Below are positions 1,369-40,303 of a stretch of DNA of 40,705 bases, piece by piece. The translations under genes and the position numbers were made by a program. Numbering within the stretch: position 1 is the first letter of the stretch; each line of letters starts with the position of its first letter. Under the pieces are notes generated by a model. It had not been told where the DNA came from. It searched no databases and saw only the letters and a list, made by a program, of their open reading frames with translations. Source of the stretch: a virus. Location of the stretch: positions 1 through 40,705 of IMG/VR virus record IMGVR_UViG_3300031616_000015; one strand, written 5' to 3'.

Positions 1369-1685
1369 CGCGCGCCGAGCTACGGACGCGCGCAATGGAA
1401 GCCACGAGACTCTGTCCCTCATGTGATGGCGGACTGCCCGCAGCTTGCACGTGCACAGTCAACGTGCGTCAGGTGGTGTCGGATCTCCTGGCCGCGCTGG
1501 ACACGCAGCAGGATGCCGTCCTGGCCGCGCTGATTCAGTGTGCACGCGCGCTCGCGTTCACCTACGGCGGAAGTCCTCGACCGTCCGACACCGAGCACGA
1601 AGCACAAGCCTGTTGGGATGCGATGGTCGCGGCTTACGCCGCACTTGGCGTGACCGACACGCGTGACCTCATCCAAAATTCCTAG
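1365..1685 (+). CDS. Hypothetical protein (106 aa) with a CPSC-x-GG-x5-C-x-C motif
   Basis: In frame with track ORF 1317..1685. ATG 1365 makes a 4-nt ATGA overlap with the upstream small gene, so I prefer it to the 1317 alternative start. Confidence 0.55.
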   Translation: MTRAELRTRAMEATRLCPSCDGGLPAACTCTVNVRQVVSDLLAALDTQQDAVLAALIQCARALAFTYGGSPRPSDTEHEAQACWDAMVAAYAALGVTDTRDLIQNS

Positions 1686-1713
1686 TTGACGCGTAGCCTC
1701 GTTCGTGTAAACT
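1686..1713 (+). promoter_or_regulatory. Sigma70-type promoter TTGACG-N16-TAAACT, 7 nt upstream of ATG 1721 (leaderless gene)
   Basis: The sequence reads ccTAGTTGACGcgtagcctcgttcgtgTAAACTagtccacATG. The TAG at 1683-1685 is the stop codon of the upstream gene. The architecture matches five other sites in the window. Confidence 0.5.
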
Positions 1714-1720
1714 AGTCCAC

Positions 1721-2407
1721 ATGACAGCGATTGTGATGGACGGGATGAACCGCAGCGAGTACCTCGCGGACATGAACCGCGAGCTTATCGCGATGGGTCT
1801 CAAGCCCGTCCGCACGATCGAAGAGGCGCAGCGTCCGAGCACGGTCGGCAAGGCTGCTGAGGTGGCGGAGCGCACGCAGGGACGCGGCAACGGAAACGGG
1901 ACATCGCGCAAGCCCGGTTCGCTTGCCACCGAAGCTCAGATCAAGTACATCATCGAGTTGACTTTCCGGATCACGGGGATGCGCGACGCGATCGAAGACG
2001 TGAACGTCGCTGGCTTCACGAAGGCTGAGGCCAGCGAGATGATCGAGCGCCTGATTCCGGTCGCCCGCGAGGCTCGCACGGTTGCCCCGATCGCTGCTCC
2101 TCTGGCCGCTCCCGTCAAGTCGACTGCGGTCACCGAGGATGGGATGTACCTGAAGGACGGCGTTGTCTTCAAGGTGCAGATCGCGAAGCAGGACTCCGGC
2201 CGCCTGTACGCGAAGCGTCTCGGCCAGGGTGGATTCGAGTACGCGCCCGGCGCTATCAACACCCTGCGCGCTGAGCACAAGATGTCGCTCGATCAGGCGA
2301 AGGAATACGGCAAGCTCTACGGGGTGTGCTGCCAGTGTGGCAAGGACCTGACGGACGAGAACAGTATTGCGGCTGGCATCGGTCCGGTGTGCGCCAGGAA
2401 GTTCTAG
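1721..2407 (+). CDS. Hypothetical protein (228 aa) with a C-terminal CxxCG...S...GxGPxC motif, which I recall as the DUF6011 type
   Basis: Track ORF. It ends ...YGVCCQCGKDLTDENSIAAGIGPVCARKF. The ATG is positioned for a leaderless transcript from the 1686-1713 promoter. Confidence 0.65.
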   Translation: MTAIVMDGMNRSEYLADMNRELIAMGLKPVRTIEEAQRPSTVGKAAEVAERTQGRGNGNGTSRKPGSLATEAQIKYIIELTFRITGMRDAIEDVNVAGFTKAEASEMIERLIPVAREARTVAPIAAPLAAPVKSTAVTEDGMYLKDGVVFKVQIAKQDSGRLYAKRLGQGGFEYAPGAINTLRAEHKMSLDQAKEYGKLYGVCCQCGKDLTDENSIAAGIGPVCARKF

Positions 2408-2545
2408 GGGAACGATGGTGTGGACAGCCATAGAAGAATATGGGTTAGCTGCCAGGGCTGGTTGGGGCAGGAAGGTTATGCAGTCGCTTTGGCCCATATC
2501 ACCATCACTCAACAGCATCAATCAAGGGGCGAGGGGAAAAGGAAG

Positions 2546-16456: not shown

Positions 16457-17504
16457 TGCGATGCCCGATGCGGCCCTTGCGCCCGTACACCGCGTACGCA
16501 TCGGCGAAGACGTCCGCGATGCCGCGTCCCGATGCCTGGCGCTCGCTCTCGCCAGAGCCGATCGTACGGGCGTAGCCTGATGCGCCCTGCTCCACGTAGT
16601 TAATGGCGAGCGCCAACGCCGTCTCGCCAATCAGGGAGGGCGGAGCATTGCGCGTGAGGTCTGCTCCGGCCGTGTGTGCCGCCGCTGTCGTGCCCGCCAC
16701 TGCCCGCCGCACGGTGCACAGACGGGGCACGTACACGATGTCGGTGTTCGCGTGAGTGGCGAGGGTCGAGGCGTTGGCGGCACGCTTGACAGTGAGGTTG
16801 TTGCCGCTGATCGATTCGACGAACATCCGCTCAGCGCCGATGAGAACGACTTCACCCGTGCTTACCAGCGTCCCGCTCGACACGGGAATGGTGGTCGTTG
16901 ACATGCTGGCCGCGACTGATCCGGTCACCGTGGCGGTCGAGTCGATGAACTCTTTCTCCGTCACGAGCATGCGCTCTGAGTCGGCCAGAAGGGCATCGCC
17001 CACGCCGACTAGCGCAGAGTTCGTCACCGTGAGTTGCGTGACGGATGAGTTGATGGTGGCTACGAGATCTCCGGCGGCATCACTGCCGTTCGATCCGCCG
17101 AACTGACCGGTGAGCACGATGCCGCGCTGAATCGATGACCACGCTGCGCTGCTTTCGCGGATCAGGCGAATCGCAGTGTACGCGCCGCTTTCCTGCTGAT
17201 AGTCCAAGTAGTAGTCAACGTTCTCGACAAAAGTCGATCCGTCAACTACTATGGAAGTCAGCGCCAGGATCTCGTAATCCGCGTGGTCGAGCCACAACGT
17301 GCTACCGGCGACCCATCGCACGTCCGGGTAGCGGACGGCAAGTTGTGGCCAGAAACGGCGGTGCAAGCGGCCAGAGATATCACGGGACGCGGCACGAACG
17401 CAGTCGTCAATGCGCCTGTTGTTGCGCACCGAGTCAGCCTGTTCAACGGTCTGCTGAACACGCTCACGCGTCGTGTAACACACCTCATCGAGTGTGCTAG
17501 CCAT
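16449..17504 (-). CDS. Head-tail adaptor/connector-like protein with a large inserted domain (351 aa)
   Basis: Track ORF with an agagggga SD. The N- and C-terminal segments resemble gp6-type head-tail connectors (from memory). The middle is Ser/Thr/Val-rich. Confidence 0.5.
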   Translation of the reverse strand: MASTLDEVCYTTRERVQQTVEQADSVRNNRRIDDCVRAASRDISGRLHRRFWPQLAVRYPDVRWVAGSTLWLDHADYEILALTSIVVDGSTFVENVDYYLDYQQESGAYTAIRLIRESSAAWSSIQRGIVLTGQFGGSNGSDAAGDLVATINSSVTQLTVTNSALVGVGDALLADSERMLVTEKEFIDSTATVTGSVAASMSTTTIPVSSGTLVSTGEVVLIGAERMFVESISGNNLTVKRAANASTLATHANTDIVYVPRLCTVRRAVAGTTAAAHTAGADLTRNAPPSLIGETALALAINYVEQGASGYARTIGSGESERQASGRGIADVFADAYAVYGRKGRIGHRNV

Positions 17505-24402: not shown

Positions 24403-24642
24403 TCAGGCCCTTCCGTGCTTCTCGATGAACTTGTGAGCGTACATTTCGGCTTCGGCAAAGGTGGCCTCTACGCGAAGAACCTCACCATTCGGATGCTGCA
24501 CATACCAGTCACAACGCGAGAACTTCGAAGCGCCGTAGTTTGCGCGAACGATCTCGAATCCGGTTGCCTTGTCCAGATAGTGACCAGCCTTGACGCGCCG
24601 AAACTTGATCGGTTCCTGGCTGGCCGTTCCGCTCTCCGTCAT
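24403..24642 (-). CDS. Hypothetical protein (79 aa), leaderless; first gene of the cassette between terminase and portal
   Basis: Track ORF. ATG 24642 sits 7 nt after the -10 box of the 24650-24678 promoter. Confidence 0.6.
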   Translation of the reverse strand: MTESGTASQEPIKFRRVKAGHYLDKATGFEIVRANYGASKFSRCDWYVQHPNGEVLRVEATFAEAEMYAHKFIEKHGRA

Positions 24643-24649
24643 GTCAACT

Positions 24650-24678
24650 ACACTACGGCATCGAGCCTAGCGTGTCAA
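24650..24678 (-). promoter_or_regulatory. Promoter TTGACA-N17-TAGTGT followed by AGTTGAC-ATG (leaderless)
   Basis: The - strand reads cCTAGTTGACAcgctaggctcgatgccgTAGTGTagttgacATG. The TAG of the upstream box (24679-24681) is the terminase stop codon. Confidence 0.6.
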
Positions 24679-26013
24679 CTAGGCGAAGCGAACGCGCGTC
24701 ACGCCGTGCAGGTCGAGGTCGGCGACCACGTACCGCGCCGCGTCCATCGAGTCATCCTCGTCCTTGTGAGGCACTTCCTTGCTGGGCTTACCGTCCGCCG
24801 TCATTTCCCACACGTAGCCCTCGATCTCCTGTGCGAAGCCGATCGGCTTGCCAGCCTCGACCATCGACTCATCGCGAGAGACCAGCGAATCGCGGCACAC
24901 GTACAGCCGTGGCTTCCCGTCCGGCTGCACCCGTAGCCGCGCCGCCACGGCCTGCAAACCATCGCTGACGGTCTTCTGGGCGGGCACAGTGCCCATGCCT
25001 AGGTGGCGCTCGAGCGTGGCCCGGTCTTCAGCATCGTGGTCACAGACGATGGCACGCGGCTTCGGATACTTCCACGTCACCCCGTCCGCTTTCGTGACCA
25101 CCTTCAGGATCTCTTTCGCGTGATCCTCGACCAGCGTCTTGGTGCGGTAGATCTCCTTCTCGAGCCACAACCGGCCGTCCGGATCGATGGCCCACATCTG
25201 CCACACGAACGGGTGCGTATAGCCAAAGTCGACACCCCATATACGCGTCCACTCGTGGGGCAACACCTTGCGGTCAGAGAGGTGCACCTCTGGCCGCCAG
25301 TCCTCGTAGATCATGCCCTCTGCTGCGGCCCAGCGCCCGTATCGCAGACGTTCCTTACGCACCCCGGTAAGGGCGTCCAGCTTCTCGATGTACGCCTTAC
25401 CGCGCGCTGTGAGCCTGCCGCTCGGATCGAACAGGACGGGGTTGTCCTCATGCCGTGAATACAGCATGGTCGTCTTACCGTCATCGCACCGTTTCTTCAG
25501 CCAGTGCGAAGGCTGCTGCGGATTGCAGTCGGCAAGCAATTGCTGTGTCGGAATGCGCCCGTTGCGCAATCGGGAGGTGATCATCTCCCAATCGTTGAGC
25601 GTCAGTTCTGTCGCTTCCTGCACGTAGGCGCAGTCGTATTCCGAGGACATGATTTTCATGGGCTTGTCCATACCGCCGACCGACACGGTACTGCCATTCG
25701 AGTAGCGGAATGCGGCAGGCTCGGAGCCGCTACCGCCATACCATTCGACGATGCCCGTCTCCAGCGCCTCAGGCAGTACGTGCTCGCGGAAGGTGACGAG
25801 TCCCGTGTTCGTCAGTGAGACGTGCGTCTTGCGCACCATGAGTACGCGCACGCTGTCGGTGCTCAGGCAGCGCGCGTGGATGCGCTCGAGGATCCCGCGC
25901 GACTTCCCCGTGCCCGCCGCGCCAGCCAGCAAGACTTCCGGCTCACGCCGCTTGAATAGTTCGAGCGCTGCCCCGCGTGCACGGTAACAGCGCTCGATGA
26001 TCTTTCCCGCCAT
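24679..26013 (-). CDS. terL: Terminase large subunit (444 aa)
   Basis: It has a Walker A motif (GAAGTGKS), a Walker B-like motif (YDCAYVQEATE) and a C-terminal nuclease-like region (WGVDFGYTHPF...DEDDSMDA). Confidence 0.9.
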   Translation of the reverse strand: MAGKIIERCYRARGAALELFKRREPEVLLAGAAGTGKSRGILERIHARCLSTDSVRVLMVRKTHVSLTNTGLVTFREHVLPEALETGIVEWYGGSGSEPAAFRYSNGSTVSVGGMDKPMKIMSSEYDCAYVQEATELTLNDWEMITSRLRNGRIPTQQLLADCNPQQPSHWLKKRCDDGKTTMLYSRHEDNPVLFDPSGRLTARGKAYIEKLDALTGVRKERLRYGRWAAAEGMIYEDWRPEVHLSDRKVLPHEWTRIWGVDFGYTHPFVWQMWAIDPDGRLWLEKEIYRTKTLVEDHAKEILKVVTKADGVTWKYPKPRAIVCDHDAEDRATLERHLGMGTVPAQKTVSDGLQAVAARLRVQPDGKPRLYVCRDSLVSRDESMVEAGKPIGFAQEIEGYVWEMTADGKPSKEVPHKDEDDSMDAARYVVADLDLHGVTRVRFA

Positions 26014-26023
26014 GCCGACTAGT

Positions 26024-26212
26024 CTACGGCCGATCCCCCACCATGAGCATTCCGGGCTTCGTGAGATGCGGAATCAGGACCTTCGCGTCCTTCAGTTGTG
26101 CGAGCCTGTTCGGGCGAAAGCCACTTCCGTCTCCGTCCAGCCACTCCACTCCAGAGCCAAAGCCGAAAACCCATTCCGCGTCTCGCAACGCGGCCTCACT
26201 CATCTTTGTCAT
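26024..26212 (-). CDS. Small protein (62 aa from the second ATG: MTKMSEAALRD...), a member of the MGM(N/T)K cassette family
   Basis: Track ORF 26024..26218. The second ATG (26212) lies 7 nt after the TAGGCT -10 box, so I prefer a leaderless start there. Confidence 0.5.
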   Translation of the reverse strand: MTKMSEAALRDAEWVFGFGSGVEWLDGDGSGFRPNRLAQLKDAKVLIPHLTKPGMLMVGDRP

Positions 26213-26218
26213 ACCCAT

Positions 26219-26253
26219 AGCCTAGTTGACATCCCATCAGGATGTCAACTAGG
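26219..26253 (-). promoter_or_regulatory. Palindromic operator/promoter: CCTAGTTGACATCC-catca-GGATGTCAACTAGG, then TAGGCT (-10) and ATGGGTATG
   Basis: 14-bp perfect inverted arms read directly at 26221-26253. On the - strand, TTGACA (26243-26248) is followed by N18 and then TAGGCT (26219-26224). Confidence 0.55.
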
Positions 26254-26265
26254 CCAGCAAGATTG

Positions 26266-26364
26266 TTACGGCTTGCGCCTGCACGTTCCCAGGAACTCTG
26301 CGAACGTCCCTACGAACGCGCCGATCACGAGCCCTAGCGCAATGTGCATGATGAGCAGCGTCAC
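26266..26364 (-). CDS. Possible micro-protein with one TM segment (32 aa: VTLLIMHIALGLVIGAFVGTFAEFLGTCRRKP)
   Basis: Hand translation. Third-position GC is high (about 27 of 32 codons end in G/C). There is no clear SD, and ATG 26349 is an alternative start. Confidence 0.3.
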   Translation of the reverse strand: MTLLIMHIALGLVIGAFVGTFAEFLGTCRRKP

Positions 26365-26539
26365 GGCCGATGCCCGGTCAGTACGCCGCGTACACGGCCG
26401 TGTGGCCGCGCCCAGTACGGAGCTACGGCTTCCACCACGGTCTCTTGGGTGTGCCGCTGGTTCCGTGTGTGGTGTTCTTCGGTTTCTTCGGCTTGCGAGG
26501 TGGGATTGCCCCGCCCGCCAACGGTTTCTTCGGCACCCA

Positions 26540-26917
26540 TCAGCCGATCCGCTTGTACGAATCGATGCTGTTGTTGAACGGCGAAGCCATCGAACCGGAC
26601 GAGTTGGCGTAGATCAGGCCACGCGTACCGGCGCACCCGACACCGGTCCACACGTAGTACTGATGGTCGGTGCGGTTCCAGATGTAAGACGTCTGGCCAC
26701 CGTAGCCGCCCAGCGCCAGGCACTCGCCGGGGGACGTGTCAGCGTCGTCGTGGTCGACCATCGGGTACCACGAGCCAGACGTGTCGAAGAAACAGATGGC
26801 GTCTGCCGTACACACACCTACGGCCTGCGCGGGTTGAGCGGCCAGGAGGGTCAACCCCAACGCGAGGCACAACACTCCGAAGACCGCGAGCGCCTTGTTC
26901 GTGAACCGATTGATCAT
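26540..26917 (-). CDS. Secreted small protein (125 aa) with a signal peptide. It resembles the peptidase-inhibitor I36 / beta-gamma-crystallin-like family.
   Basis: GGAGG SD before ATG 26917. The signal peptide is ...LALGLTLLAAQPAQA|VG. The Cys pattern and the motifs ICFFD, SYIWNRTD, GCAG and FNNSIDSYKRI resemble actinobacterial I36-family proteins (from memory). Confidence 0.65.
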   Translation of the reverse strand: MINRFTNKALAVFGVLCLALGLTLLAAQPAQAVGVCTADAICFFDTSGSWYPMVDHDDADTSPGECLALGGYGGQTSYIWNRTDHQYYVWTGVGCAGTRGLIYANSSGSMASPFNNSIDSYKRIG

Positions 26918-26947
26918 CTTTCCTCCAGTGAGACAGGTCGGAAAAGA

Positions 26948-26989
26948 GCACGGGACCTAAGCATCCCACACCCATCGTGCACTTGTCAA
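26948..26989 (-). promoter_or_regulatory. Promoter for the secreted-protein gene: CTAGTTGACA-N17/18-(G)GATGCT, followed by a 24-nt conserved leader
   Basis: The - strand reads cgaCTAGTTGACAagtgcacgatggGTGTGGGATGCTTAGGTCCCGTGCtc...GGAGGaaagATG. The 24-nt block recurs inverted at 27791-27814. Confidence 0.45.
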
Positions 26990-27047
26990 CTAGTCGATCG
27001 GACAGAGAACGCGCCCCGAGGGGCGCGCCTCGCGTTCCTCCTGTCGA

Positions 27048-27233
27048 TCAGGCAACCACCACCCCGGCGTCCGTACGAACGATCAGGCCCATGTCTTCCA
27101 GCTTGCACAGGGAGTTGATGTTCATTCCTGCAACGCGGTGGTGGAAGTCTGCAATCGAGCCGACCTCAACGAGCTTCGCGAGGGTCTTGTTGTCGGTGGC
27201 GGAAAGCTTCGGGGCCTTGCTCGTCTTGTTCAT
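27048..27233 (-). CDS. Small protein (61 aa from the second ATG: MNKTSKAPKLSATDNKTLAKLVEVG...LEDMGLIVRTD); possible winged-helix DNA binder
   Basis: Track ORF 27048..27239. The second ATG lies exactly 7 nt after the TAGGCT box. The first 33 nt are identical to those of 27493..27720. Confidence 0.55.
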   Translation of the reverse strand: MNKTSKAPKLSATDNKTLAKLVEVGSIADFHHRVAGMNINSLCKLEDMGLIVRTDAGVVVA

Positions 27234-27239
27234 ACCCAT

Positions 27240-27273
27240 AGCCTAGTTGACATGCCCGAGCATGTCAACTAGG
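27240..27273 (-). promoter_or_regulatory. Palindromic operator/promoter: CCTAGTTGACATGC-ccga-GCATGTCAACTAGG, with TAGGCT as the -10 box
   Basis: 14-bp perfect inverted arms at 27242-27273. On the - strand, TTGACA (27263-27268) is followed by N17 and then TAGGCT (27240-27245). Confidence 0.55.
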
Positions 27274-27296
27274 TGGGCAGGAATTCCTCAAGATTT

Positions 27297-27491
27297 TCAG
27301 GCAATCAAGTCCCTGACTTCGATCCACCAATGGTGACCCTGGCCGTTCTTTTCGCGATATACCTTGGGGGCCTTGATCCACTCCAACTCCCACCAACCAC
27401 GCTCGTTCATGCCTTCCATGGGCTTGACGAGTCGGGCAGTACCTACCCGGCGGTACTGAATCATCGCGCCGGGGATCAACTTCGCTGTCAC
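27297..27491 (-). CDS. Hypothetical Trp-rich protein (64 aa)
   Basis: Track ORF. Its GTG start lies 1 nt after the stop of the upstream gene. Confidence 0.5.
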   Translation of the reverse strand: MTAKLIPGAMIQYRRVGTARLVKPMEGMNERGWWELEWIKAPKVYREKNGQGHHWWIEVRDLIA

Positions 27492-27492
27492 G

Positions 27493-27714
27493 TCACACCG
27501 CCCGGTAGTACGTCTCGGTGAACTGCTGGCCGTTCAGGACACGGGAGTCGACCGTGAGCCGGTTCTCCCGAGTGACGATGCCCTTCTTGGCGAGCGCGTA
27601 GATCGCGGCGAGGTTTCCACCTGCGAAGCGGTAATCCGTCTCACTCATCTCGATCGTACCCAGGATTTCTAGAGCCTTGGCTTGAGTCTTGGGGAGTGCG
27701 CTCGTCTTGTTCAT
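27493..27714 (-). CDS. Small protein (73 aa from the second ATG: MNKTSALPKTQAKALEILG...LAKKGIVTREN); possible winged-helix DNA binder
   Basis: Track ORF 27493..27720. It has the same leader, N-terminus and promoter geometry as 27048..27233. Confidence 0.55.
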   Translation of the reverse strand: MNKTSALPKTQAKALEILGTIEMSETDYRFAGGNLAAIYALAKKGIVTRENRLTVDSRVLNGQQFTETYYRAV

Positions 27715-27720
27715 ACCCAT

Positions 27721-27753
27721 AGCCTAGTTGACACCCCCGAGGATGTCAACTAG
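27721..27753 (-). promoter_or_regulatory. Imperfect palindromic operator/promoter: CCTAGTTGACACCC-ccga-GGATGTCAACTAG, with TAGGCT as the -10 box
   Basis: Read directly. On the - strand, TTGACA (27744-27749) is followed by N17 and then TAGGCT (27721-27726). Confidence 0.55.
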
Positions 27754-27772: not shown

Positions 27773-27814
27773 TTGACAACATGTCAACTAGTGTGGGATG
27801 CTTAGGTCCCGTGC
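27773..27814 (+). promoter_or_regulatory. Candidate + strand (antisense) promoter: TTGACA-N17/18-(G)GATGCT plus the same 24-nt block as 26948-26971
   Basis: The sequence reads ggTTGACAacatgtcaactagtGTGGGATGCTTAGGTCCCGTGCc. Its geometry is identical to the - strand promoter at 26948-26989, but it points into the antisense of genes 27826..28427. Confidence 0.35.
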
Positions 27815-27825
27815 CTGATTCCGGC

Positions 27826-27957
27826 TCAGGCGTTGAGCGGACCGTGCTCGCCCGCATAGTCACACGCGAGGCAGACTCGCACGCCGTGATCGGCCAGAGG
27901 GACCAGCCCCCGCGCGCACCACTTGCAGATCTCACGGGCCGCGCGCGCCACGCTCAC
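27826..27957 (-). CDS. Zinc-ribbon micro-protein (43 aa: VSVARAAREICKWCARGLVPLADHGVRVCLACDYAGEHGPLNA). It is below the ORF-track cutoff.
   Basis: Hand translation. The GTG start makes a GTGA overlap with the stop of 27954..28427. It carries two CxxC pairs. Confidence 0.55.
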   Translation of the reverse strand: MSVARAAREICKWCARGLVPLADHGVRVCLACDYAGEHGPLNA

Positions 27958-28427
27958 GCCAGGTCCTCCGGAGCCACGCCCTCGATCGAATACTTCACGG
28001 TCGCGGTGGTTTCGGTCTTCGTGGCCGCATCGAGCCCGAGGCGCGTCGCGAGCGTGTTATCCGCCTTCAGTGCGGTGGCGAGCGCTCGATCCCGAGCGGC
28101 GTAGTCGCGCACGATCGCGCCAGTCTCGGGGTCGTACAGGATGTTGCCGTCCTTGCCCACGGCCACCGGCGCGCCAGCCATCTCGACCATCGCCACGGCC
28201 TGATCCTTGACGTACTTGATCAGCTCGATGGATTCCTGAATCAGCTCAGCACGGTCGATCGGCGGAATGGAATCGCGAACGTCTTTCTCGATCTGAGCAA
28301 CACGCTGTTGCGAGATTCCGTAATGCTCGGCGCACCATGCCTGCGTCTTGCCACGCAGTGAGATCCATCGCCAGATCTCTCCGTTGCGACCTTCAAGCTT
28401 GGTTTCGTCTCCCGGACGCCCAGCCAT
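27954..28427 (-). CDS. HTH DNA-binding protein (157 aa); candidate small terminase subunit
   Basis: Internal ATG 28427 of track ORF 27954..28457. The HTH-like segment is GKTQAWCAEHYGISQQRVAQIEKDV. Its size and position upstream of terL fit a small terminase. There is no other candidate of suitable size. Confidence 0.55.
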   Translation of the reverse strand: MAGRPGDETKLEGRNGEIWRWISLRGKTQAWCAEHYGISQQRVAQIEKDVRDSIPPIDRAELIQESIELIKYVKDQAVAMVEMAGAPVAVGKDGNILYDPETGAIVRDYAARDRALATALKADNTLATRLGLDAATKTETTATVKYSIEGVAPEDLA

Positions 28428-28434
28428 AAGTTGA

Positions 28435-29025
28435 TCATCCGCAACTAGAGTTGACAAGCCACGTTTTCAACGCTTTGAAAGAAAGCGCCGAGAGTGGCAA
28501 TTCTGGACCCCATGTCCATACGCTCGACCACTTCCATTCGAGCTTGGAAGCGGGAGACGAGTAGACGGCGCACGCGCGGTTTCGCGTCATCGCGTGACGG
28601 CCGAAGCGAAGACCGATCGAATGCGTCATTTGGAGCGGCCTCCCTGTCGATGCGTGCGTGTTGTTGCCGCAAGCATACCCCCGGCGCACCTCCCATCCGC
28701 AACCTTCCGCCAGTGCCTGCAACTTGAGCACGGACGCGGGCCACGGGAAGTCGGGCACGACATCCGCACGGGAGCTGATCAGCGGCGCGGGGAACACCTC
28801 GATCTCAACCTCACGCGCAACGTACGTGCCCATCGGGTAGCCGACCACAGGCCTGTACGCGCCAGCCTCGCCGCCGCGTCCGGCTACCTCGAGACACGCA
28901 CCGCACCGTGCCACCCGAGCGCGCTCCGGCGTGCACAGGGCATCGTTCGCACCGCACGAGGTGCACCGTGCCCACACGAGGTGGGATGCGGGCACCTCGC
29001 GCGGCTCTTCAAAGTCAAGCGTCAC
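28435..29025 (-). CDS. Hypothetical protein with an N-terminal Cys4 motif (196 aa; CTSCG...CGAC)
   Basis: Track ORF with a GTG start in an operon of overlapping genes. Confidence 0.55.
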   Translation of the reverse strand: MTLDFEEPREVPASHLVWARCTSCGANDALCTPERARVARCGACLEVAGRGGEAGAYRPVVGYPMGTYVAREVEIEVFPAPLISSRADVVPDFPWPASVLKLQALAEGCGWEVRRGYACGNNTHASTGRPLQMTHSIGLRFGRHAMTRNRACAVYSSPASKLEWKWSSVWTWGPELPLSALSFKALKTWLVNSSCG

Positions 29026-29278: not shown

Positions 29279-29793
29279 GGGATCTCCTCTGGGTCTCTAG
29301 CGGCCAGCACGGACACTTCCACGCCCGCCTTCTCGCCGTTCCGTGCCCACCGTTTCCACGTTCCTCGACTGCCGATGACAAGCGAATCATCTTTGATCAG
29401 ACCCGACTGGGTAAGCGCATCCAGTAGGTTTCTGAGTAGCTTGTCCCAATCACCAATGTCGATGGATGTGGGATGGTCGACATCGTGCGAAGGCCATAGT
29501 TCGCCTGCCACGCCAATCTGCCGATGGAAGCGGAACACGCATTCGATTTCGACTGCCCCGGCGTACGGTTCGGGCTCGAATCCGAGGACCTTGTTGCCAG
29601 CCTTGACGGGCGTGATTCCGAACTGTTTGCGGATGTGCCGCACCATCGCGTTCTTCCACGGCACCGCGAATTTGCCGGATTCCACGAGATGCACGACCAT
29701 CCGGCCGCCCTTGCCCCGCGACAGTTCGGGAGTGAGCGACCCCTTCGTGTGGGGCCGCCCCTCCACGAAGAATCGGGCGAGAGGTTCGCTCAC
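29275..29793 (-). CDS. rusA: RusA-family Holliday junction resolvase (172 aa)
   Basis: The N-terminal FFVEGRPHTKGS and the DIGDWDKLLRNLLDALTQSGLIKDDSLV block match the RusA pattern (D-x-D-N/K...D-a-l...DD), recalled from memory. Confidence 0.7.
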   Translation of the reverse strand: MSEPLARFFVEGRPHTKGSLTPELSRGKGGRMVVHLVESGKFAVPWKNAMVRHIRKQFGITPVKAGNKVLGFEPEPYAGAVEIECVFRFHRQIGVAGELWPSHDVDHPTSIDIGDWDKLLRNLLDALTQSGLIKDDSLVIGSRGTWKRWARNGEKAGVEVSVLAARDPEEIP

Positions 29794-29987
29794 TTGACCG
29801 GGAACAGCTTGTCAAGTTCCCGGTCCTTGAGCCGTTCCGCCCGGATCGAGCCGCGCAGCGTCAGTCCGCCGTTCTCCCCGATCAAGCCCGCGTTGAACAG
29901 TTGACGCATTTCTGGCCCGATCGCCCGCGTTGCCGCCCCGACGTGGTACCCGAGCGCGTCCTTGAGCAGTTCATCGTTTGTTCTCAT
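29790..29987 (-). CDS. Small protein (65 aa), leaderless; possible winged-helix-like DNA binder
   Basis: Track ORF. ATG 29987 lies 7 nt after the -10 box of the 29995-30023 promoter. It has a GTGA overlap with rusA. Confidence 0.6.
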   Translation of the reverse strand: MRTNDELLKDALGYHVGAATRAIGPEMRQLFNAGLIGENGGLTLRGSIRAERLKDRELDKLFPVK

Positions 29988-29994
29988 GTCAACT

Positions 29995-30023
29995 ACCCTA
30001 GTCGCTCAGGTCTGGCATGTCAA
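29995..30023 (-). promoter_or_regulatory. Promoter TTGACA-N17-TAGGGT followed by AGTTGAC-ATG (leaderless)
   Basis: The - strand reads tCTAGTTGACAtgccagacctgagcgacTAGGGTagttgacATG. The TAG at 30024-30026 is the stop codon of the upstream gene. Confidence 0.6.
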
Positions 30024-30836
30024 CTAGAACAGGAAGGTTTTGTCCTGCCAGACGTTCAACGCCGACTTCAGTTCAGCGGCGTACGCCGCGTACGCCTCAG
30101 GGTCGTGGATGGCGGACTTGATCGGCTCTCCGCACCTCCACGTACCACCTGGATGGATAACCTGCTTCGTGCACAAATGATTCAATGACGGCTCAAAGTC
30201 GTGTACCCCGCGCCCATGCCCCTCGTATGTCCGTACGAGCACCGTGTAAGCCGCTGAGGCGTCCTGTGCCGCGTTGACGGGCGCGCCCCCGACTCGGGTA
30301 CCCGCCTCGCCCGAAAGCCGCTGTACAGCCGCCTCAAGGGCCGCAACGCGCAACCTCAGGTCTTCCACGTCCGTACGAGATGCGGGCAGGGGCGTGAAGT
30401 TCGCCAGCAGGACCTTCGTGTCCCGTGCGATGTCCTCGACCAGAGCGGCTTCATGAGCGGCCAGGAGAACAGCATTCCGCGCCTGGCCCAGCGTTCCACC
30501 CCGGCGTACGCGCCATGCCCGAACTGTCTTCGCCCACGAGCCACGTTCGCCCGGACGCAGCGTCTCGCCTTCGGCGATCCATTCCACGTACCGGTATGCC
30601 AGTCGTTCGTCTTCGGCCAGGAGGCGCACCGTGGCACGCGACCGGCCGCCCCAATCCATGTCGCTGTGAACCACGCGCACCCGTTCCGCCCATTCGCCCG
30701 CCTGGCGGCATCCCCGGCACGTGGCGTCCGCCAGCCGGTTGGTCCGCATCTCGTGGTAGCCGAGCGGCAGTCCGCACGCGTTGCCCCACAAGCCTCCCGT
30801 TTCCCGTACCAACGCTCCAAGGTGAATCTCGTTCAT
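30024..30836 (-). CDS. Hypothetical protein (270 aa) with an N-terminal Cys motif and a central coiled-coil-like segment
   Basis: Internal ATG 30836 of track ORF 30024..30887, preceded by gagaggcgagag (SD-like). It is the first gene downstream of the iteron/box region. Confidence 0.6.
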   Translation of the reverse strand: MNEIHLGALVRETGGLWGNACGLPLGYHEMRTNRLADATCRGCRQAGEWAERVRVVHSDMDWGGRSRATVRLLAEDERLAYRYVEWIAEGETLRPGERGSWAKTVRAWRVRRGGTLGQARNAVLLAAHEAALVEDIARDTKVLLANFTPLPASRTDVEDLRLRVAALEAAVQRLSGEAGTRVGGAPVNAAQDASAAYTVLVRTYEGHGRGVHDFEPSLNHLCTKQVIHPGGTWRCGEPIKSAIHDPEAYAAYAAELKSALNVWQDKTFLF

Positions 30837-30894
30837 GTCTCTCGCCTCTCGTCTTGAATCGGCCAGGAAGGTCAACCCCCGAGCCACCTACCCG

Positions 30895-30943
30895 CGTCAA
30901 CTACCTACCCATCATGTCAACTAGGAATCTCTCGTGTCAACTA
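30895..30943 (-). repeat. Three direct TAGTTGAC(A/G) boxes phased at exactly 20 bp
   Basis: On the + strand the boxes read cgtcaacta (30895-30903), tgtcaacta (30915-30923) and tgtcaacta (30935-30943). Confidence 0.7.
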
Positions 30944-30983
30944 CTATTTTTCATAGAGATCCTGATCTTGAGGACTGGCAAAA

Positions 30984-31186
30984 GTACGCACGGTACGCAC
31001 GCGCCCCCTCCTAGGGTCGGGGGCGCTGGTACGCACTTACCGTCAGCCGGTATGCACCCCGGTACGCACCGGTACGCACCGCAGGTCAGAGGCGGTACGC
31101 ACTTGGTACGCACGGTACGCACCCCCGGTACGCACCCCGGTACGCACTGCCTTTTTGATCTTGGAGTGCGTACCGCAGTGCGTACC
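30984..31186. repeat. Iteron array: 11 direct copies of (G)GTACGCAC plus 2 inverted copies (GTGCGTACC); candidate replication origin or regulator-binding array
   Basis: Direct copies are at 30984, 30992, 31028, 31049 (GGTATGCAC), 31061, 31071, 31094, 31105, 31114, 31127 and 31139. Inverted copies are at 31166 and 31178. A GC hairpin (31001-31026) lies inside the array. Flanks are AT-rich and both carry TGATCTTG (30963, 31156). Confidence 0.85.
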
Positions 31187-33569: not shown

Positions 33570-33821
33570 CTACCCCGCGAGCATCCCGCGATACAGGTAG
33601 CGCTGAGGTTCGCGCACCATCGCACCGAAGGTCGATGCCAACTCACGCTCGTACACGGCTGTCTGAAATTGCGTCACGTCAAGGGCGTCGGCCAGGGACA
33701 TCAGGTCGTCATCGAACGCCGCACCGGTCGGCACCATCGGCACGTGCCAGACCCGGCGCAACGCGCTCACCGAGATGATCTGCCCGTCGACCGGGCCACC
33801 CCACAGTTCGATGTCGATCAC
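33570..33821 (-). CDS. Hypothetical protein (83 aa, MIDIELWGGPVDGQ...)
   Basis: Track ORF with a GTGA overlap to the upstream gene. Confidence 0.55.
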   Translation of the reverse strand: MIDIELWGGPVDGQIISVSALRRVWHVPMVPTGAAFDDDLMSLADALDVTQFQTAVYERELASTFGAMVREPQRYLYRGMLAG

Positions 33822-34231
33822 GCCACGTCCTCTTTCTCGGTGCCCGGCATGCCGGGGAGGAACTGCTGTTCGCGCAGCATGCGAGCCTCGCCGCTGTTCC
33901 TCTGGCCGGGTAAGTCGCGCAACTCGCCGTGCAGGTCCTCGGCGGTCATCGCCTCCAGCTCCTCGAGCGCGGGCACCTTGACCCTGCCGCCCACGAGCGC
34001 CCGTACGAACGCGGCACGCAGCAGGCCAGCCCGTCCGGCGACCACGTCCAGCCGCGACAGCCGCGCATCGGCCGCCAGTTCCATGTTGTCGAGCGTGGCC
34101 CCGCGCAACACCTGACGGTTGACTTCCGCGCGCGATACGCGCATGACCACCCGCAACGCGTCCATGCGGTCGAGGTCCCCCGTGTCTACCAGCGCCATGA
34201 ACTGATTCTTGATACGCCCTGCCGTTCCCAC
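33818..34231 (-). CDS. Hypothetical protein (137 aa); first gene of the - strand block
   Basis: Track ORF. GTG start at 34231 with a GGAAAGG SD 7 nt upstream. Confidence 0.55.
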   Translation of the reverse strand: MGTAGRIKNQFMALVDTGDLDRMDALRVVMRVSRAEVNRQVLRGATLDNMELAADARLSRLDVVAGRAGLLRAAFVRALVGGRVKVPALEELEAMTAEDLHGELRDLPGQRNSGEARMLREQQFLPGMPGTEKEDVA

Positions 34232-34312
34232 AATGTCACCTTTCCGTACGATTCATGCCCGATGCTGCGGCACGGTACCGCCGGACGACACCCACCGTAC
34301 CCTGCGGACTAG

Positions 34313-34341
34313 TTGACAGGCAACCCCCCACCGACTACGGT
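34313..34341 (+). promoter_or_regulatory. Promoter TTGACA-N17-TACGGT followed by AGTTGAC-ATG (leaderless)
   Basis: The sequence reads aCTAGTTGACAggcaaccccccaccgacTACGGTagttgacATG, with the ATG at 34349. Confidence 0.6.
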
Positions 34342-34348
34342 AGTTGAC

Positions 34349-34525
34349 ATGAACATGCCGCAGAGGGCCACGGTCCTCGACTTCCTCAGGTTCTTCCTGG
34401 CCGCGCTGATGCTGCTCACCACCATCAACCTCGCGACCAATCAGGACGGCTTTCTGGATTCCTTCCTCACTGGTCTTGCCGCCGCTGCCACTATCGCTCT
34501 GATCCGTGGGGGTCTCCAGAAATGA
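34349..34525 (+). CDS. Small membrane protein with two TM segments (58 aa, MNMPQRATVLDFLRFFLAALMLLTTINL...)
   Basis: In frame with track ORF 34313..34525. ATG 34349 is positioned for a leaderless transcript. It has an ATGA overlap with the next gene. Confidence 0.55.
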   Translation: MNMPQRATVLDFLRFFLAALMLLTTINLATNQDGFLDSFLTGLAAAATIALIRGGLQK

Positions 34526-35644: not shown

Positions 35645-35648
35645 CTAG

Positions 35649-35678
35649 TTGACACGCCGCGTACCTACCGACTACTGT
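35649..35678 (+). promoter_or_regulatory. Promoter TTGACA-N18-TACTGT followed by AGTTGAC-ATG (leaderless helicase gene)
   Basis: The sequence reads gCTAGTTGACAcgccgcgtacctaccgacTACTGTagttgacATG, with the ATG at 35686. Confidence 0.6.
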
Positions 35679-35685
35679 AGTTGAC

Positions 35686-37554
35686 ATGGAGATTACGTTG
35701 GACCCGATGGCCATCCTGCGCCCGTATCAACGGGACGCGATCGATCACCTGTGGAAGTCGTGGGACGCGGGCATGACGCGCGTCCCGATGGTGCTCGCCA
35801 CGGGCCTCGGTAAAACGAAGATCTTCACGCGTGTCGTGCACAAGTGGCTCACCGAGAACGGAAGCAAGCGTGTGCTCGTCATCGCGCACACGGATGAGCT
35901 GATCTCGCAGGCAGCCGCAGAAATGCGTGCCGCCAACTCCGGGATCGCGGTCGGCATCGTCAAGGCTGGACTGAACGAGACGCACTGCCGGATCATCATC
36001 TCGTCTCGTCAGACTCTCGCTTCCGAAAAGCGTCGTGCACAGTTGAAGCGTGTCGGTCTGATCATCATCGATGAGGCGCATCATGCCGTTCGCACGAACA
36101 CGTACGGCAAGATCCTCGAGCACTTCGGCGCGTTCCCCTCGCCGTGCTCCTCATGCTCTGAGGGATTCAGCGGCGATCAGGCGGTACCGGGAGGGCAGTG
36201 CTGGGATTGTCAGGGGACCGGGCTCTACAACGGCGGAGAGACTGCCGTCAAGGTTCTCGGATTGACCGCGACTCTTTCGCGTGGCGACAAGGCGAAGCTC
36301 TCCACGGTGTGGGAGGACAAGCCCGTCCCGACCTTCCGCAAGGACATCCTGTTTGGAATCCGCAACGGCTTCCTGCTCGATGTGCGTGGCGAGCGTGTCA
36401 TCGTTCCCGACCTGAACATGAAGAACGTCAAAACGCAGGGTGGTGATTTTCAGGATGCGAGCATCGCGGAAGAGTTGGAACGCACTTTCGCACCGCAGAT
36501 TGTTGCGGAAAAGTACGCGACCGTGGCAAGGAAATCAGGAAGCAATGAGTTACGTCAGGGGATTGCGTTCTGGCCGTTGGTGGATACTGCCTACCATGGC
36601 GCGCAAGCTTTCAATGATGCGGGCATCTCGTCTGCGGTCATCCACGGTGGTCTACCGAAAGAAGAGCGCAAGCTCATCTTGAAGCGGTTTCAGGCTGGCG
36701 AGATAACCGTTGTCCACAATTGCATGGTGCTGACGGAAGGCTTCGACGCGCCGTGGGCAGACGTGGTGGTGATCGGTCGCCCGACACGCAACGGTGGCCT
36801 GTATCAGCAAATGGTCGGGCGCGTGCTGCGCCCTGATCTGACCGTTGAGGCGAGCCTGCGCGAGAAGGCACTCATCCTCGATGTCACGGGTGCAGGCGCG
36901 GACAACGATCTACGCTGCCTGATCGACCTCGCGCCGGAGCGTCCGCTGAGGAAGCATGACGACGACGATGAGGACTTCTCGCTACTCGATCTCGAGCTAG
37001 AGCTAGAAGAGTCCATCGCCAGCGGCGCGGCACCGTGGCTCGTGGAGGAGATCTACGAAGGGCCTGCTGACACCAAGGCGTTCGATCCTCTTCACCGAAC
37101 TTTGGCGTGGAATCAGACTCCGGACGGCACGTACTTCATGAGCGCCGGGGGCAGCCATTACATCTTCCTCGGTGAGTCCGCGTACGGCGATCCTGGCACG
37201 TACGACGTGGTGTGGTGCACGAAGGTGGATTGGAACACCCCGCCGCAGTCGGCGGGCTCGACCGACTACCGCGCCCTGCCGCTGGAAGAGGCGCTGCTGT
37301 GGGCGGAGGAGGAAGCGATCTCGCGTGGCGGGCACGGCGCGAAGACGCTGTCATCGCGTAAGAGTAAGTGGCGTGACGAGCCTGCCACTGAAGGGCTGAA
37401 GAGCAAGGCTCGCGCGAACGGCATCCGCAACAACAAGGCGACCGGTCGTGATCTGGACACGATGACAAAGGGTGAGCTGGGCGAATTGATCGACGCGAAG
37501 ATTGCAGCCAAGAGTATCGATCCGCTCGTACGCAGACTGAAGGGAACGCGGTAA
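35686..37554 (+). CDS. Superfamily 2 DEAD/DEAH-box DNA helicase (622 aa)
   Basis: Motif I is LATGLGKT, motif II is IIIDEAHH, motif III is LGLTATLSRGD and motif VI is QQMVGRVLR. Confidence 0.85.
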   Translation: MEITLDPMAILRPYQRDAIDHLWKSWDAGMTRVPMVLATGLGKTKIFTRVVHKWLTENGSKRVLVIAHTDELISQAAAEMRAANSGIAVGIVKAGLNETHCRIIISSRQTLASEKRRAQLKRVGLIIIDEAHHAVRTNTYGKILEHFGAFPSPCSSCSEGFSGDQAVPGGQCWDCQGTGLYNGGETAVKVLGLTATLSRGDKAKLSTVWEDKPVPTFRKDILFGIRNGFLLDVRGERVIVPDLNMKNVKTQGGDFQDASIAEELERTFAPQIVAEKYATVARKSGSNELRQGIAFWPLVDTAYHGAQAFNDAGISSAVIHGGLPKEERKLILKRFQAGEITVVHNCMVLTEGFDAPWADVVVIGRPTRNGGLYQQMVGRVLRPDLTVEASLREKALILDVTGAGADNDLRCLIDLAPERPLRKHDDDDEDFSLLDLELELEESIASGAAPWLVEEIYEGPADTKAFDPLHRTLAWNQTPDGTYFMSAGGSHYIFLGESAYGDPGTYDVVWCTKVDWNTPPQSAGSTDYRALPLEEALLWAEEEAISRGGHGAKTLSSRKSKWRDEPATEGLKSKARANGIRNNKATGRDLDTMTKGELGELIDAKIAAKSIDPLVRRLKGTR

Positions 37555-39106: not shown

Positions 39107-39387
39107 CCATGGTCGGACATCCCGACGTCGTGCACTGCACGCGTACCTACTCACCGGTCGTGACTCACTACTACGGGCGTCTGAGCAACGGGCACTTCTT
39201 CTACTTCACGTACCGGTTCGGCCGCGTCACGCTGGCCGTGGGTTCCAGCAAGGTCGCTACGGACGGTCGGCATGATGTGGTGATGGCGCACGGCGCGGCC
39301 AGACAGGGCAACTTCGCTAGCGATCAAGTCCGTGACCAGGTGTTCTCTCACCTCTACAATCTCCTTCAAGAAACTTCGCTCAACTAG
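39103..39387 (+). CDS. Hypothetical protein (94 aa)
   Basis: In frame with track ORF 39070..39387, with a GTG 39103 coupled start. Its TAG stop (39385-39387) is part of the next CTAGTTGAC box. Confidence 0.5.
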   Translation: MTMVGHPDVVHCTRTYSPVVTHYYGRLSNGHFFYFTYRFGRVTLAVGSSKVATDGRHDVVMAHGAARQGNFASDQVRDQVFSHLYNLLQETSLN

Positions 39388-39416
39388 TTGACGCGGTGGC
39401 CAGCAGCGACTAGTGT
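39388..39416 (+). promoter_or_regulatory. Promoter TTGACG-N17-TAGTGT in front of a non-coding RNA locus
   Basis: The sequence reads aaCTAGTTGACGcggtggccagcagcgacTAGTGTtcttctcACGGGGG. No ATG follows. The predicted start is near 39424. Confidence 0.55.
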
Positions 39417-39423
39417 TCTTCTC

Positions 39424-39654
39424 ACGGGGGAGGTCAAGCCCTCAGGGCAAGGAACGGCACGGAAGTTCTCGGGACTCCTGAGGAGAAGGCGATTGAGTCG
39501 CGCCTCAGGCTCGCACCCGAGAACGTGCACCCACCACGGGAGTTCGTCAGGAATACCGTAGGGTCAGAGTATCTGGCGATGACGACACGGAAAGACGTGT
39601 GGCCCCCGCGCTTCGGCGCATGGCGCAATGCAGGTTCGAATCCTGCGAGGGGCG
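39424..39654 (+). ncRNA. Structured RNA of unknown class ending in a tRNA-like T-arm/acceptor minihelix (39602-39654). It is not a canonical tRNA.
   Basis: The T-arm GCAGG-TTCGAAT-CCTGC lies at 39630-39646. The 3' strand GAGGGGC (39647-39653) pairs with GCCCC (39602-39606). There is a GCGC-TTCG-GCGC hairpin at 39608-39619. Upstream long-range pairings are CCTCAGG 39440 / CCTGAGG 39477 and GTTCTCGGG 39465 / CCCGAGAAC 39516. The antisense ORF contains the AGFEPA signature typical of tRNA antisense. Confidence 0.4.
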
Positions 39655-39829
39655 CGAAGGTGTGACGCACCTAGTTTTGGCAGTAGCCGTTTACGACGAG
39701 TGTCACATCTTCACGGGAGCAAGGAATCGGCAGGCCCAATTTCATATCGGCAGTGTGCGGAACTATCCCGCAGAGACGCTCGTCCCCTGATGCGACACTA
39801 ACGCGGTTAGACGCAGAAAGTGACGCTAT

Positions 39830-40123: not shown

Positions 40124-40196
40124 GCCCCATATAGCTTAACGGTAGAGCGCTCCGCCCGATACGCGGGAAGACAAGGGTTCGAATCCCTTAGGGGCA
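40124..40196 (+). tRNA. tRNA-like gene, 73 nt, with tentative anticodon GAU (Ile) and irregular features
   Basis: T-arm is AAGGG-TTCGAAT-CCCTT. D-arm is GCTT-AACGGTA-GAGC. The anticodon stem is TCCGC/GCGGG with loop CCGATAC. The acceptor stem has only 5 G-C pairs plus mismatches, position 33 is C rather than U, and no CCA is encoded. Confidence 0.55.
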
Positions 40197-40303
40197 CGGC
40201 GCAAGTACCCGAGGTCACGCTCTCGCACTGTGACAGCGAGTCAAGGGGAACGCACCGCCGAGGACGGAAGGCATAGGCCGTGACAGTCCGGAGAGACGGA
40301 CGC

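Follow-up and report, generated by a model that had tools for sequence, protein, structure and literature searches.

Small ribbon-helix-helix (RHH) repressors, such as Arc and Mnt of phage P22, CopG of pMV158 and omega of pSM19035, act as dimers on short, phased direct or inverted repeats over the -35 and -10 elements of promoters and control their own synthesis. MarR operators typically overlap the same two elements, and the early promoters of phage phiC31 carry conserved inverted repeats that are bound by the c repressor. Silencing of many transcription units at once by a single protein is thought to occur in the cluster A mycobacteriophages (PMC9283540) and in the Streptomyces phage R4 (PMC10276819). 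The cluster A repressor acts at stoperators, defined as more than 20 asymmetric 13-bp sites that lie outside promoters in short intergenic spaces, follow the direction of transcription in their orientation and stop elongation (PMC9283540). Here we analyse a stretch of 40,705 nt (IMG/VR record IMGVR_UViG_3300031616_000015, positions 1 to 40,705; in the following called the window) from an uncultured phage of an actinobacterium. In this window an 8-nt box, TAGTTGAC, usually followed by A, forms the core of about 13 predicted sigma-A-type promoters, which would serve essentially every transcription unit of the phage. Our preferred reading, to which we assign a probability of roughly 55%, is that these boxes are promoter cores doubling as operators, through which a regulator co-controls nearly all transcription units. 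Searching the literature with the motif string returned nothing relevant, and the system is described in no paper that we found.

The box occurs exactly 22 times on the two strands of the window, compared to 0.41 (mean) and at most 2 copies in 100 dinucleotide-preserving shuffles. A first-pass annotation, made from the sequence alone, had counted about 22 copies by eye at what proved to be the same places, and had named enrichment over a composition-matched background as a check, which the shuffles now bear out. For the 9-mer TAGTTGACA, allowing at most one mismatch, we found 28 sites against 3.8 expected. Of 38 TTGACA copies in total, 18 are preceded by TAG. All boxes but one (21 of 22) belong to sites shaped like promoters, approximately 13 in number, in the non-structural regions of the genome. 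Nineteen point in the direction of transcription, and the remaining three are inverted partners of other boxes. The exception, at 17241, had been singled out before as the sole copy in the structural block, which it is; it is probably non-functional.

We scanned both strands with the strict pattern TTGACN-N16-19-TAnnnT-N5-8-(A/G)TG, which combines sigma-A-type features (a -35 element near TTGACA, a spacer of 16-19 nt and a TAnnnT -10 element) with a nearby start codon. Only eight matches were obtained. All eight are TAG-prefixed, and in all eight the start codon is precisely that of an open reading frame (ORF) and begins 6-7 nt behind the -10 element (plus strand: 1721, 34349, 35686; minus strand: 29987, 27714, 27233, 26212, 24642). 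Because the ORFs open exactly at this position, just after the -10 element, the eight promoters are predicted to yield leaderless mRNAs, which are common in Actinobacteria. Further promoter-shaped sites lie at 39385, 26985 and 27773, in an array of three boxes and, in leftward direction, at 34323-34294. The general make-up is a TTGACA -35 element, a spacer of 16-18 nt and a -10 element of the type TA(C/G)nnT.

Five classes of sites can be distinguished: bipartite, palindromic, triple array, single box and divergent or antisense (Table 1). In the bipartite class, box 1 is the -35 element, the last T of the -10 element TA(C/G)nGT is at the same time the first T of box 2, and box 2 covers positions -7 to -1. 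The six layouts listed in the first-pass annotation were all reproduced with their coordinates, the one at 39385 having no start codon after its -10 element. In four of them the ATG is directly preceded by AGTTGAC, so that the box is directly repeated at a spacing of 31 or 32 bp. As also stated there, the ORF in front terminates at the TAG of the upstream box in four cases (1683-1685, 24679-24681, 30024-30026 and 39385-39387); at box 30019-30026 this ORF is the 287-aa upstream gene. The sites added here are three palindromic promoters (26223/26244, 27244/27264, 27725/27745), the triple array with its 20-bp spacing (30896/30916/30936) and two single or degenerate sites (26985; 27773/27783). In the palindromic class an inverted box lies in the spacer, its TAG forming the first half of the -10 element TAGGCT. 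Such an extra inverted box is present in three to four promoters and additionally in the promoter of a candidate regulator gene. At both sites of the divergent or antisense class (27773 and 34323-34294), the inverted box stands at the beginning of the 18-nt spacer. All spacings (20, 20-21 and 31-32 bp) correspond to about two or three helical turns. Read from the sequences, no -10 element follows the second boxes, which therefore cannot be -35 elements themselves. The re-use of the -35 box at -10/+1 of putatively leaderless promoters is the distinctive feature of the system.

Table 1 Predicted promoters, candidate regulator genes and gene blocks of the window. Numbers between hyphens are spacer lengths in nt.
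Feature	Position	Strand	Elements	Gene or remark
Bipartite promoter	34310..34351	+	TTGACA-17-TACGGT-AGTTGAC-ATG(34349); box 1 34310-34317, -35 34313-34318, -10 34336-34341, box 2 34341-34348	58-aa membrane protein (ATG 34349)
Bipartite promoter	35646..35688	+	TTGACA-18-TACTGT-AGTTGAC-ATG(35686); box 2 35678-35685	SNF2/ResIII-type helicase
Bipartite promoter	29985..30026	-	TTGACA-17-TAGGGT-AGTTGAC-ATG(29987); box 1 30019-30026, box 2 29988-29995	65-aa protein
Bipartite promoter	24640..24681	-	TTGACA-17-TAGTGT-AGTTGAC-ATG(24642); box 1 24674-24681, box 2 24643-24650	79-aa protein; promoter of the portal-to-tail structural operon, immediately behind the TerL stop codon
Palindromic promoter	26210..26251	-	-35 box 26244-26251; inverted box 26223-26230 in 18-nt spacer; -10 TAGGCT (26219-26224) overlaps the TAG of the inverted box; ATGGGT, then leaderless ATG	62-aa protein (ATG 26212)
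Palindromic promoter	27231..27271	-	boxes 27264-27271 and 27244-27251; -10 TAGGCT	61-aa protein (ATG 27233)
Palindromic promoter	27712..27752	-	boxes 27745-27752 and 27725-27732; layout as 26210..26251	73-aa protein (ATG 27714)
Triple array	30885..30943	-	box A 30936-30943 (-35 TTGACA), box B 30916-30923, box C 30896-30903 (~+1); extended -10 TGaCATGAT overlaps box B	Shine-Dalgarno-like GGGTAGG, then GTG 30887 of 287-aa protein
Single-box leaderless promoter	1683..1723	+	TTGACG-16-TAAACT-AGTCCAC-ATG 1721; box at +1 degenerate (2 mismatches)	DUF6011 protein
Single-box promoter	39385..39420	+	TTGACG-17-TAGTGT	ahead of ~700 nt without convincing ORF
Single-box promoter	26960..26992	-	box 26985-26992, 18-nt spacer, GATGCT	leadered gene 26540-26917, secreted 125-aa protein
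Promoter-like site	27773..27802	+	degenerate -35 box cGGTTGACA; full inverted box 27783-27790 in 18-nt spacer; -10 GATGCT	would direct transcription antisense to the TerS-like gene
Leftward promoter of candidate regulator gene	34294..34323	-	-35 TTGCCT; 18-nt spacer beginning with inverted box GTCAACTAG (same DNA as box 34310-34317); -10 TACGGT	~55-nt leader with Shine-Dalgarno, then GTG 34231
Isolated box	17241..17248	-		inside structural ORF 16449-17504; absent from the orthologous region of L004
Candidate regulator 1	33818..34231	-		137 aa, first gene of leftward operon; RHH-like N-terminal pattern
Candidate regulator 2	29790..29987	-		65-aa leaderless protein, family-conserved, always directly behind a box promoter
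Candidate regulator 3	27954..28457	-		167 aa, family-conserved; N-terminal helix-turn-helix (HTH)
Leftward operon	~34231 down to ~5600	-		in order: small RHH-like gene, primase/helicase, RusA-like resolvase, HTH protein (probably TerS), TerL, portal/capsid/tail genes including tape measure
Opposite-strand genes	34349 through window end on to ~5500	+		SNF2-type helicase, exonuclease, DUF6011 protein, tRNA-Ile

Close relatives of the phage were retrieved by protein homology (L010, L016, L017, L018 and L024-L026; such labels denote our comparison sequences) and, in the case of L004, through the motif itself. All orthologous boxes are retained in them, those at +1 and in the triple array as well, and among the loci retrieved by protein homology we saw no orthologous promoter that lacks a box. 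In 16 bipartite promoters from eight metagenomic genomes, listed with a pattern demanding both boxes and extending down to 59% primase identity, the two boxes are invariant and lie 31 bp (13 promoters) or 32 bp (3) apart. Relative to the window, 0 of 176 positions are changed within the boxes and 46 of 180 within the spacers (p ~1e-15), which answers the call of the first-pass annotation for a comparison with related phage genomes. The 34310 promoter has kept both boxes in L010, L016, L017, L024 and L026, even where a different gene follows, and the 35646 promoter has done so in L010, L016 and L017, its spacer being altered there by an indel of 1 nt. Likewise kept are the promoters 29985..30026 (L016, L018), 24640..24681 (L004), 1683 (L010) and 39385 (L010, L016, L019, L020). 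The triple array of L016 is identical in arrangement to that of the window, and the layout of the leftward promoter 34323-34294 recurs in L024, L025 and L026. Between paralogous as well as orthologous palindromes the arms are kept and the loops changed; L004, for instance, differs in the loops of 26210..26251 and 27231..27271 and keeps the arms, identically so at the latter. At the 27773 site, L004 has a full TAGTTGAC.

This pattern bears on the possibility that the box is simply an extended -35 element for the host sigma-A holoenzyme, the extra copies acting through RNA polymerase or deriving from the copying of promoter cassettes, and that there is no regulator. In a variant, a second holoenzyme or sigma region 4 would dock non-productively at the extra boxes as a decoy, reservoir or tuning element. 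TTGACA is the consensus -35 element, (T/C)AGTTGAC stands at -35 throughout the phage family, even in lineages without second copies, no regulator is identifiable, and the bipartite modules resemble one another (repeat family D8). However, randomised spacers between invariant boxes speak for ongoing selection and not for recent duplication, and neither the inverted copies nor the strict phasing at 20-21 and 31-32 bp has a known role in polymerase recognition. The lineage-specific dyads around an invariant -35 element, described below, are also hard to reconcile with a conserved host sigma factor. We consider an explanation through polymerase alone possible but unlikely.

We regard it as highly improbable that the boxes work at the level of RNA or recombination, that is, that the palindromes act as hairpins (terminator, processing signal or stabiliser) or the boxes as micro-homologies for cassette exchange. 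In read-through RNA each palindrome would fold into an 11-bp stem, but neither the direct pairs nor the triple array can give a hairpin, and the palindromes have no T-run behind them; the sequence found there is GGCTATGGGTATGA, and a terminator scan calls no terminator. An exchange of cassettes would agree with the different genes behind conserved promoters, for example behind the 34310 promoter in the window and in L010, and with the block of small genes between the TerS-like gene and TerL. Yet 8-11 bp of identity is short for homologous recombination, and the helical phasing and the fixed positions at -10/+1 would be left unexplained.

Full second copies of the box are restricted to the clade of the window. 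Among the more distant relatives, which are syntenic with the window, L008 has seven TAGTTGAC boxes, all single and all at -35 of leaderless promoters, with variable sequence between the -10 element and the ATG. The orthologues of promoter 29985..30026 in L008 and L019-L021 likewise have the -35 box only. Because leaderless promoters of L008 and L019-L021 vary between the -10 element and the ATG, the +1 box appears dispensable for this promoter type; in the clade of the window AGTTGAC is invariant at this position. The earlier statement that promoter needs do not account for the second box is thus supported. The motif in L008 is TAGTTGAC(A/T)(A/T)CTGTATGAG, and L014 has cAGTTGAC-...-TATAAT-6-ATG.

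In the sister lineages L019-L021, L028-L035, L046 and L047, nearly every leaderless promoter has its -35 element in a dyad particular to the lineage, such as AACCAGTTGACAAGTGAACTGGTT, CTAGTTGACATCTGGACTAG or GACCTGTTGACAGGTC. The motif CAGTTGAC-N6-ACTGG, which puts the -35 element inside the dyad, occurs in L019-L021, L029, L031-L035 and L047; in L020 the dyad AACCAGTT-N8-AACTGGTT is found at seven sites (positions of L020 dyads are, e.g., 12389, 14415, 4954 and 2204). L030 and part of L028 use CTAGT-N10-ACTAG, L046 uses GACCTG-TTGAC-...-CAGGTC, and L039 and L042 have a further motif. Each lineage thus seems to couple the family-wide (T/C)AGTTGAC -35 box to a symmetric or repeated partner of its own. 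Such diversification is not predicted by a conserved host sigma factor and fits a co-evolving regulator; lineage-specific dyads are what operators typically show when they diversify along with a regulator encoded by the phage. The conserved CTAG prefix, which the first-pass annotation had taken as a sign of a regulator, is by itself no clade-specific evidence for one, since a (T/C)AG prefix at -35 is found throughout the family. We also rejected the co-variation of dyad arms as proof of dimer binding because it is only partial.

Several sequences that matched the motif were set aside. L001, L002 and L007 show similar arrangements but have no proteins in common with the window, and matches in the IMG/VR motif scan are near chance, so that we do not use them as strong comparative evidence; those in L003 and L006, two low-GC contigs, are due to chance. 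L005 is not a relative either: its array of ~400 bp (8817-9200) with a 10-bp period, TTGACATGAC, shares a TTGACATG core and is a different, unrelated tandem repeat.

Tandem perfect palindromes, TAGTTGACATGTCAAC, whose half-site is the 9-mer TAGTTGACA itself, lie at five chromosomal loci from Streptosporangiaceae metagenome-assembled genomes, Corynebacterium and one uncultured bacterium (L051 4035-4077, L059 752-795, L073 1758-1796, L062 3563-3600, L078 2713-2750). The adjoining gene is marR at three of the five loci (L051, L059, L073) and DoxX at two. These cellular palindromes appear to be an autoregulatory MarR operator of which the phage box is a half-site, and winged-helix regulators would then read this 9-mer in cells. 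Given this match in half-sites, a regulator of the host might take part, for example a winged-helix protein of the MarR family with the chromosomal operator TAGTTGACATGTCAACTA, which would control the phage promoters or be titrated by them. That the nearest cultured relative by TerL infects Thermobifida, a member of the Streptosporangiales, agrees with this. Nonetheless, we think it rather improbable. The half-sites in the phage are 8-9 bp (inverted) or 31 bp (direct) apart and do not abut as they do in cells. Sister lineages, presumably in related hosts, use different dyads, which fits better with a specificity carried by the phage. The likeness to MarR operators thus lies in the half-site shared with the palindromes by the marR genes; the phage repeats are direct or spaced, library scans detected no MarR-family protein and no marR gene in the window, and its small proteins have no significant similarity to the MarR proteins of L051, L059 and L073.

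Three proteins encoded in the window are candidates for the binder. The gene of the 137-aa protein is conserved throughout the family as the first gene of the leftward operon, and an inverted box is present in its own promoter in four lineages (window, L024, L025, L026). Its homologues form subfamilies, and the putative DNA-reading strand is exactly where these differ: a QFM type occurs with TAG boxes (window, L016, L008, L028, L030), a TQLL type with CAG dyads (L019-L021, L029, L031-L035) and a third type with a third motif (L039, L042). As these groups are clades, the correlation is weak evidence. Against PDB, the 137-aa protein matched the CopG family at E=0.54, or at E=0.067 with an N-terminal profile, neither of which is significant, followed by sigma-70 region 4.2 at E=0.24-0.35. 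It has no Pfam match, an AlphaFold model of the monomer (predicted local distance difference test, pLDDT, 77) was uninformative with Foldseek, and this model has a helix where the strand of an RHH fold is expected. The system resembles those of RHH repressors in its phased repeats overlapping promoters (20, 20-21 and 31-32 bp), including the promoter of the candidate regulator gene, and in the position of this gene beside a divergent promoter pair that holds the box. It differs from them in that the CopG match reaches only E=0.067, the spacing of 20-32 bp is larger and the operator would coincide with a consensus -35 element.

The model of the 65-aa protein (pLDDT 93.5) shows a helix, a hairpin and a long helix, resembling a winged helix; its Foldseek matches are non-significant, and several are MarR-type winged helices. 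In the 167-aa protein the HTH aligns weakly but repeatedly to sigma region 4.2 (Pfam Sigma70_r4; SigG, ECF and RpoH models). Its recognition helix shows no correspondence with the dyad type, and the protein is more likely the small terminase subunit (TerS) because its gene adjoins TerL in L021. In the window, ~1.9 kb of small genes with promoters of their own separate the two. The minus-strand region 26024-27714 holds three small genes (61-73 aa), each with a palindromic two-box leaderless promoter, and one gene for a secreted protein. Similar small genes are found in L008, with the same -10/start motif TAG(A/G)CTATGGGTATG. A test for paralogy among four small proteins of the phage gave no support.

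The most economical explanation of the second boxes is, in our view, a sequence-specific DNA-binding protein, most probably encoded by the phage. In the dual-function reading preferred here, the box would be both a -35 element and the recognition site of a protein that evolves with the lineage. Extra copies lie over -7 to -1, inverted in the spacer and reaching the -10 element, or over -35, -10 and +1. Protein units on two or three boxes along one face of the DNA would cooperate and, once bound, would exclude sigma region 4 and prevent open-complex formation. The outcome would be a coordinated repression, or timing, of nearly all promoters, and the inverted spacer box would extend it to the promoter of the candidate regulator itself, i.e. 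autoregulation. The enrichment, the geometry and the conservation of both boxes beside drifting spacers are observed directly; from them we infer that transcription starts at the predicted sites and that a protein binds there, and repression over activation and the identity of the binder are likewise conclusions drawn from sequence and comparison. The genome-wide set of promoters with one common box, as proposed in the first-pass annotation, is supported on the same grounds. As to the DNA-binding protein suggested there, the lineage-specific dyads and the MarR half-site argue for it, while no binder was found among the window proteins and structure and profile searches gave nothing significant.

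Several points weigh against such double use of the box. No protein of the window is demonstrably a DNA-binding regulator: searches of Pfam, PHROGs and NCBIfam gave nothing significant for the 137-aa and 65-aa proteins, and PDB profile searches and fold searches were without a significant match. The arms of the dyads co-vary in part, and mostly between genomes. The (T/C)AG-prefixed -35 box occurs family-wide and could be purely a determinant of RNA polymerase recognition. The promoters of the relatives were selected for having both boxes, and L004 for having the motif. Finally, as neither an integrase nor a classical repressor was found, shutting off all promoters, that of the structural operon included, would have no evident purpose.

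A more far-reaching version, which we put forward only tentatively, is that a regulator site became the -35 box itself and was duplicated at -10/+1, so that a small protein would compete with sigma-A region 4, giving a cooperative genome-wide on/off switch in a phage without integrase. Its premise is that a large uncultured family puts the -35 element of nearly every promoter into a lineage-specific operator. The protein might, again speculatively, be RHH-like, a mini winged-helix or similar to sigma region 4.

The analogy to stoperators, drawn in the first-pass annotation, holds loosely. Like the cluster A phages (L5, Bxb1, TipsytheTRex) and R4, the window repeats one short asymmetric site over 20 times, in promoters and where genes meet, and the L5 13-mer GGTGGMTGTCAAG reportedly contains TTGACA on the other strand. 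Of the 22 asymmetric 8-9-mers in the window, 19 are co-oriented with transcription and three are inverted partners. Unlike stoperators, the boxes are arranged in phased pairs and triples, inverted pairs included. All boxes except the one at 17241 are promoter-shaped, and separate sites that could block elongation are not evident in the window. Nor did Pfam, PHROGs and NCBIfam yield a cluster A-type repressor with HTH and stoperator domain, or an integrase, and the phage looks lytic. With the T7-type and phiC31 promoter families the window shares one conserved sequence ahead of most transcription units, but its promoters are of the host type with -35 and -10 elements.

If one small protein indeed acts on about 13 promoters, the phage would offer a compact natural model of the competition between a regulator and sigma region 4, of the regulation of leaderless promoters, where there is no 5' UTR (untranslated region) to act on, and of operator specificity diversifying with its regulator across phage lineages. 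If the extra boxes act only via RNA polymerase, the promoter architecture would be unusual in its own right. The promoter modules of ~42 bp, with a consensus -35 element and a leaderless start, could be useful expression parts for high-GC Gram-positive bacteria.

The window has a G+C content of ~61% and represents essentially the entire phage genome (~40.7 kb). A contig of 40,719 nt on record carries an identical primase. Most genes form one long operon on one strand, and the others lie on the opposite strand (Table 1). No integrase, repressor or partition ATPase was detected among the window proteins with Pfam, PHROGs and NCBIfam, and a search of 185,579 genomes revealed no related prophage, which is why the phage appears to be lytic. 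Neither a phage RNA polymerase nor a sigma factor is encoded in the window. A DNA search at near-identity gave no match among GenBank phages, leaving the phage without a close cultured relative; the best TerL matches are those of Thermobifida phage P1312 (57%) and Streptomyces phage Dagobah (54%). The uncultured family is large, with more than 296 primase homologues, many of them on contigs of 40-44 kb. Primase matches in Micromonospora (L022, L023) were discarded as a clue to the host, being small integrative elements without boxes. Matches to the bipartite pattern in the genome collection were likewise discarded as evidence of prophages or hosts, as their number (31) is below the ~48 expected by chance and none is related to the phage at the protein level.

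Some further elements adjoin the promoters. Between the stop codon of the primase/helicase gene and the triple-box promoter, the minus strand at 30983-31186 carries 13 copies of GTGCGTACC (11 direct, 2 inverted), followed by a GC-rich hairpin. Equivalent arrays directly follow the primase gene in L016 (11586-11780), L018 (2255-2429) and L020 (12130-12368). The array looks like a replication origin with iterons. Within the ~700 nt downstream of the 39385 promoter, which end at the tRNA-Ile gene (40124-40197), a tRNA-like T-arm segment is found at 39602-39655. The predicted first transcribed bases behind this promoter, TCTTCTYGTAAGGCAA, are kept in L010, L016, L019 and L020 but not in the window.

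An inverted repeat of 33 nt (26939-26971 and 27791-27823; 88% match) duplicates the -10 element GATGCT together with approximately 20 nt from the start of the predicted transcript. The gene of the secreted 125-aa protein (26540-26917) is served by one copy, while its partner is directed antisense into 27826-27957 and the TerS-like gene. The repeat could be an antisense RNA promoter or mark the ends of a 0.9-kb cassette of small genes. A 313-aa protein (2420-3361, plus strand) belongs to phrog_5931 and has a homologue in L008 (8434-9270), in which a ELIDGQNRMHAV stretch resembles the DGQHR motif of the ParB/sulfiredoxin type. Its gene lies beside the divergent promoter region in L008 and elsewhere in the window.

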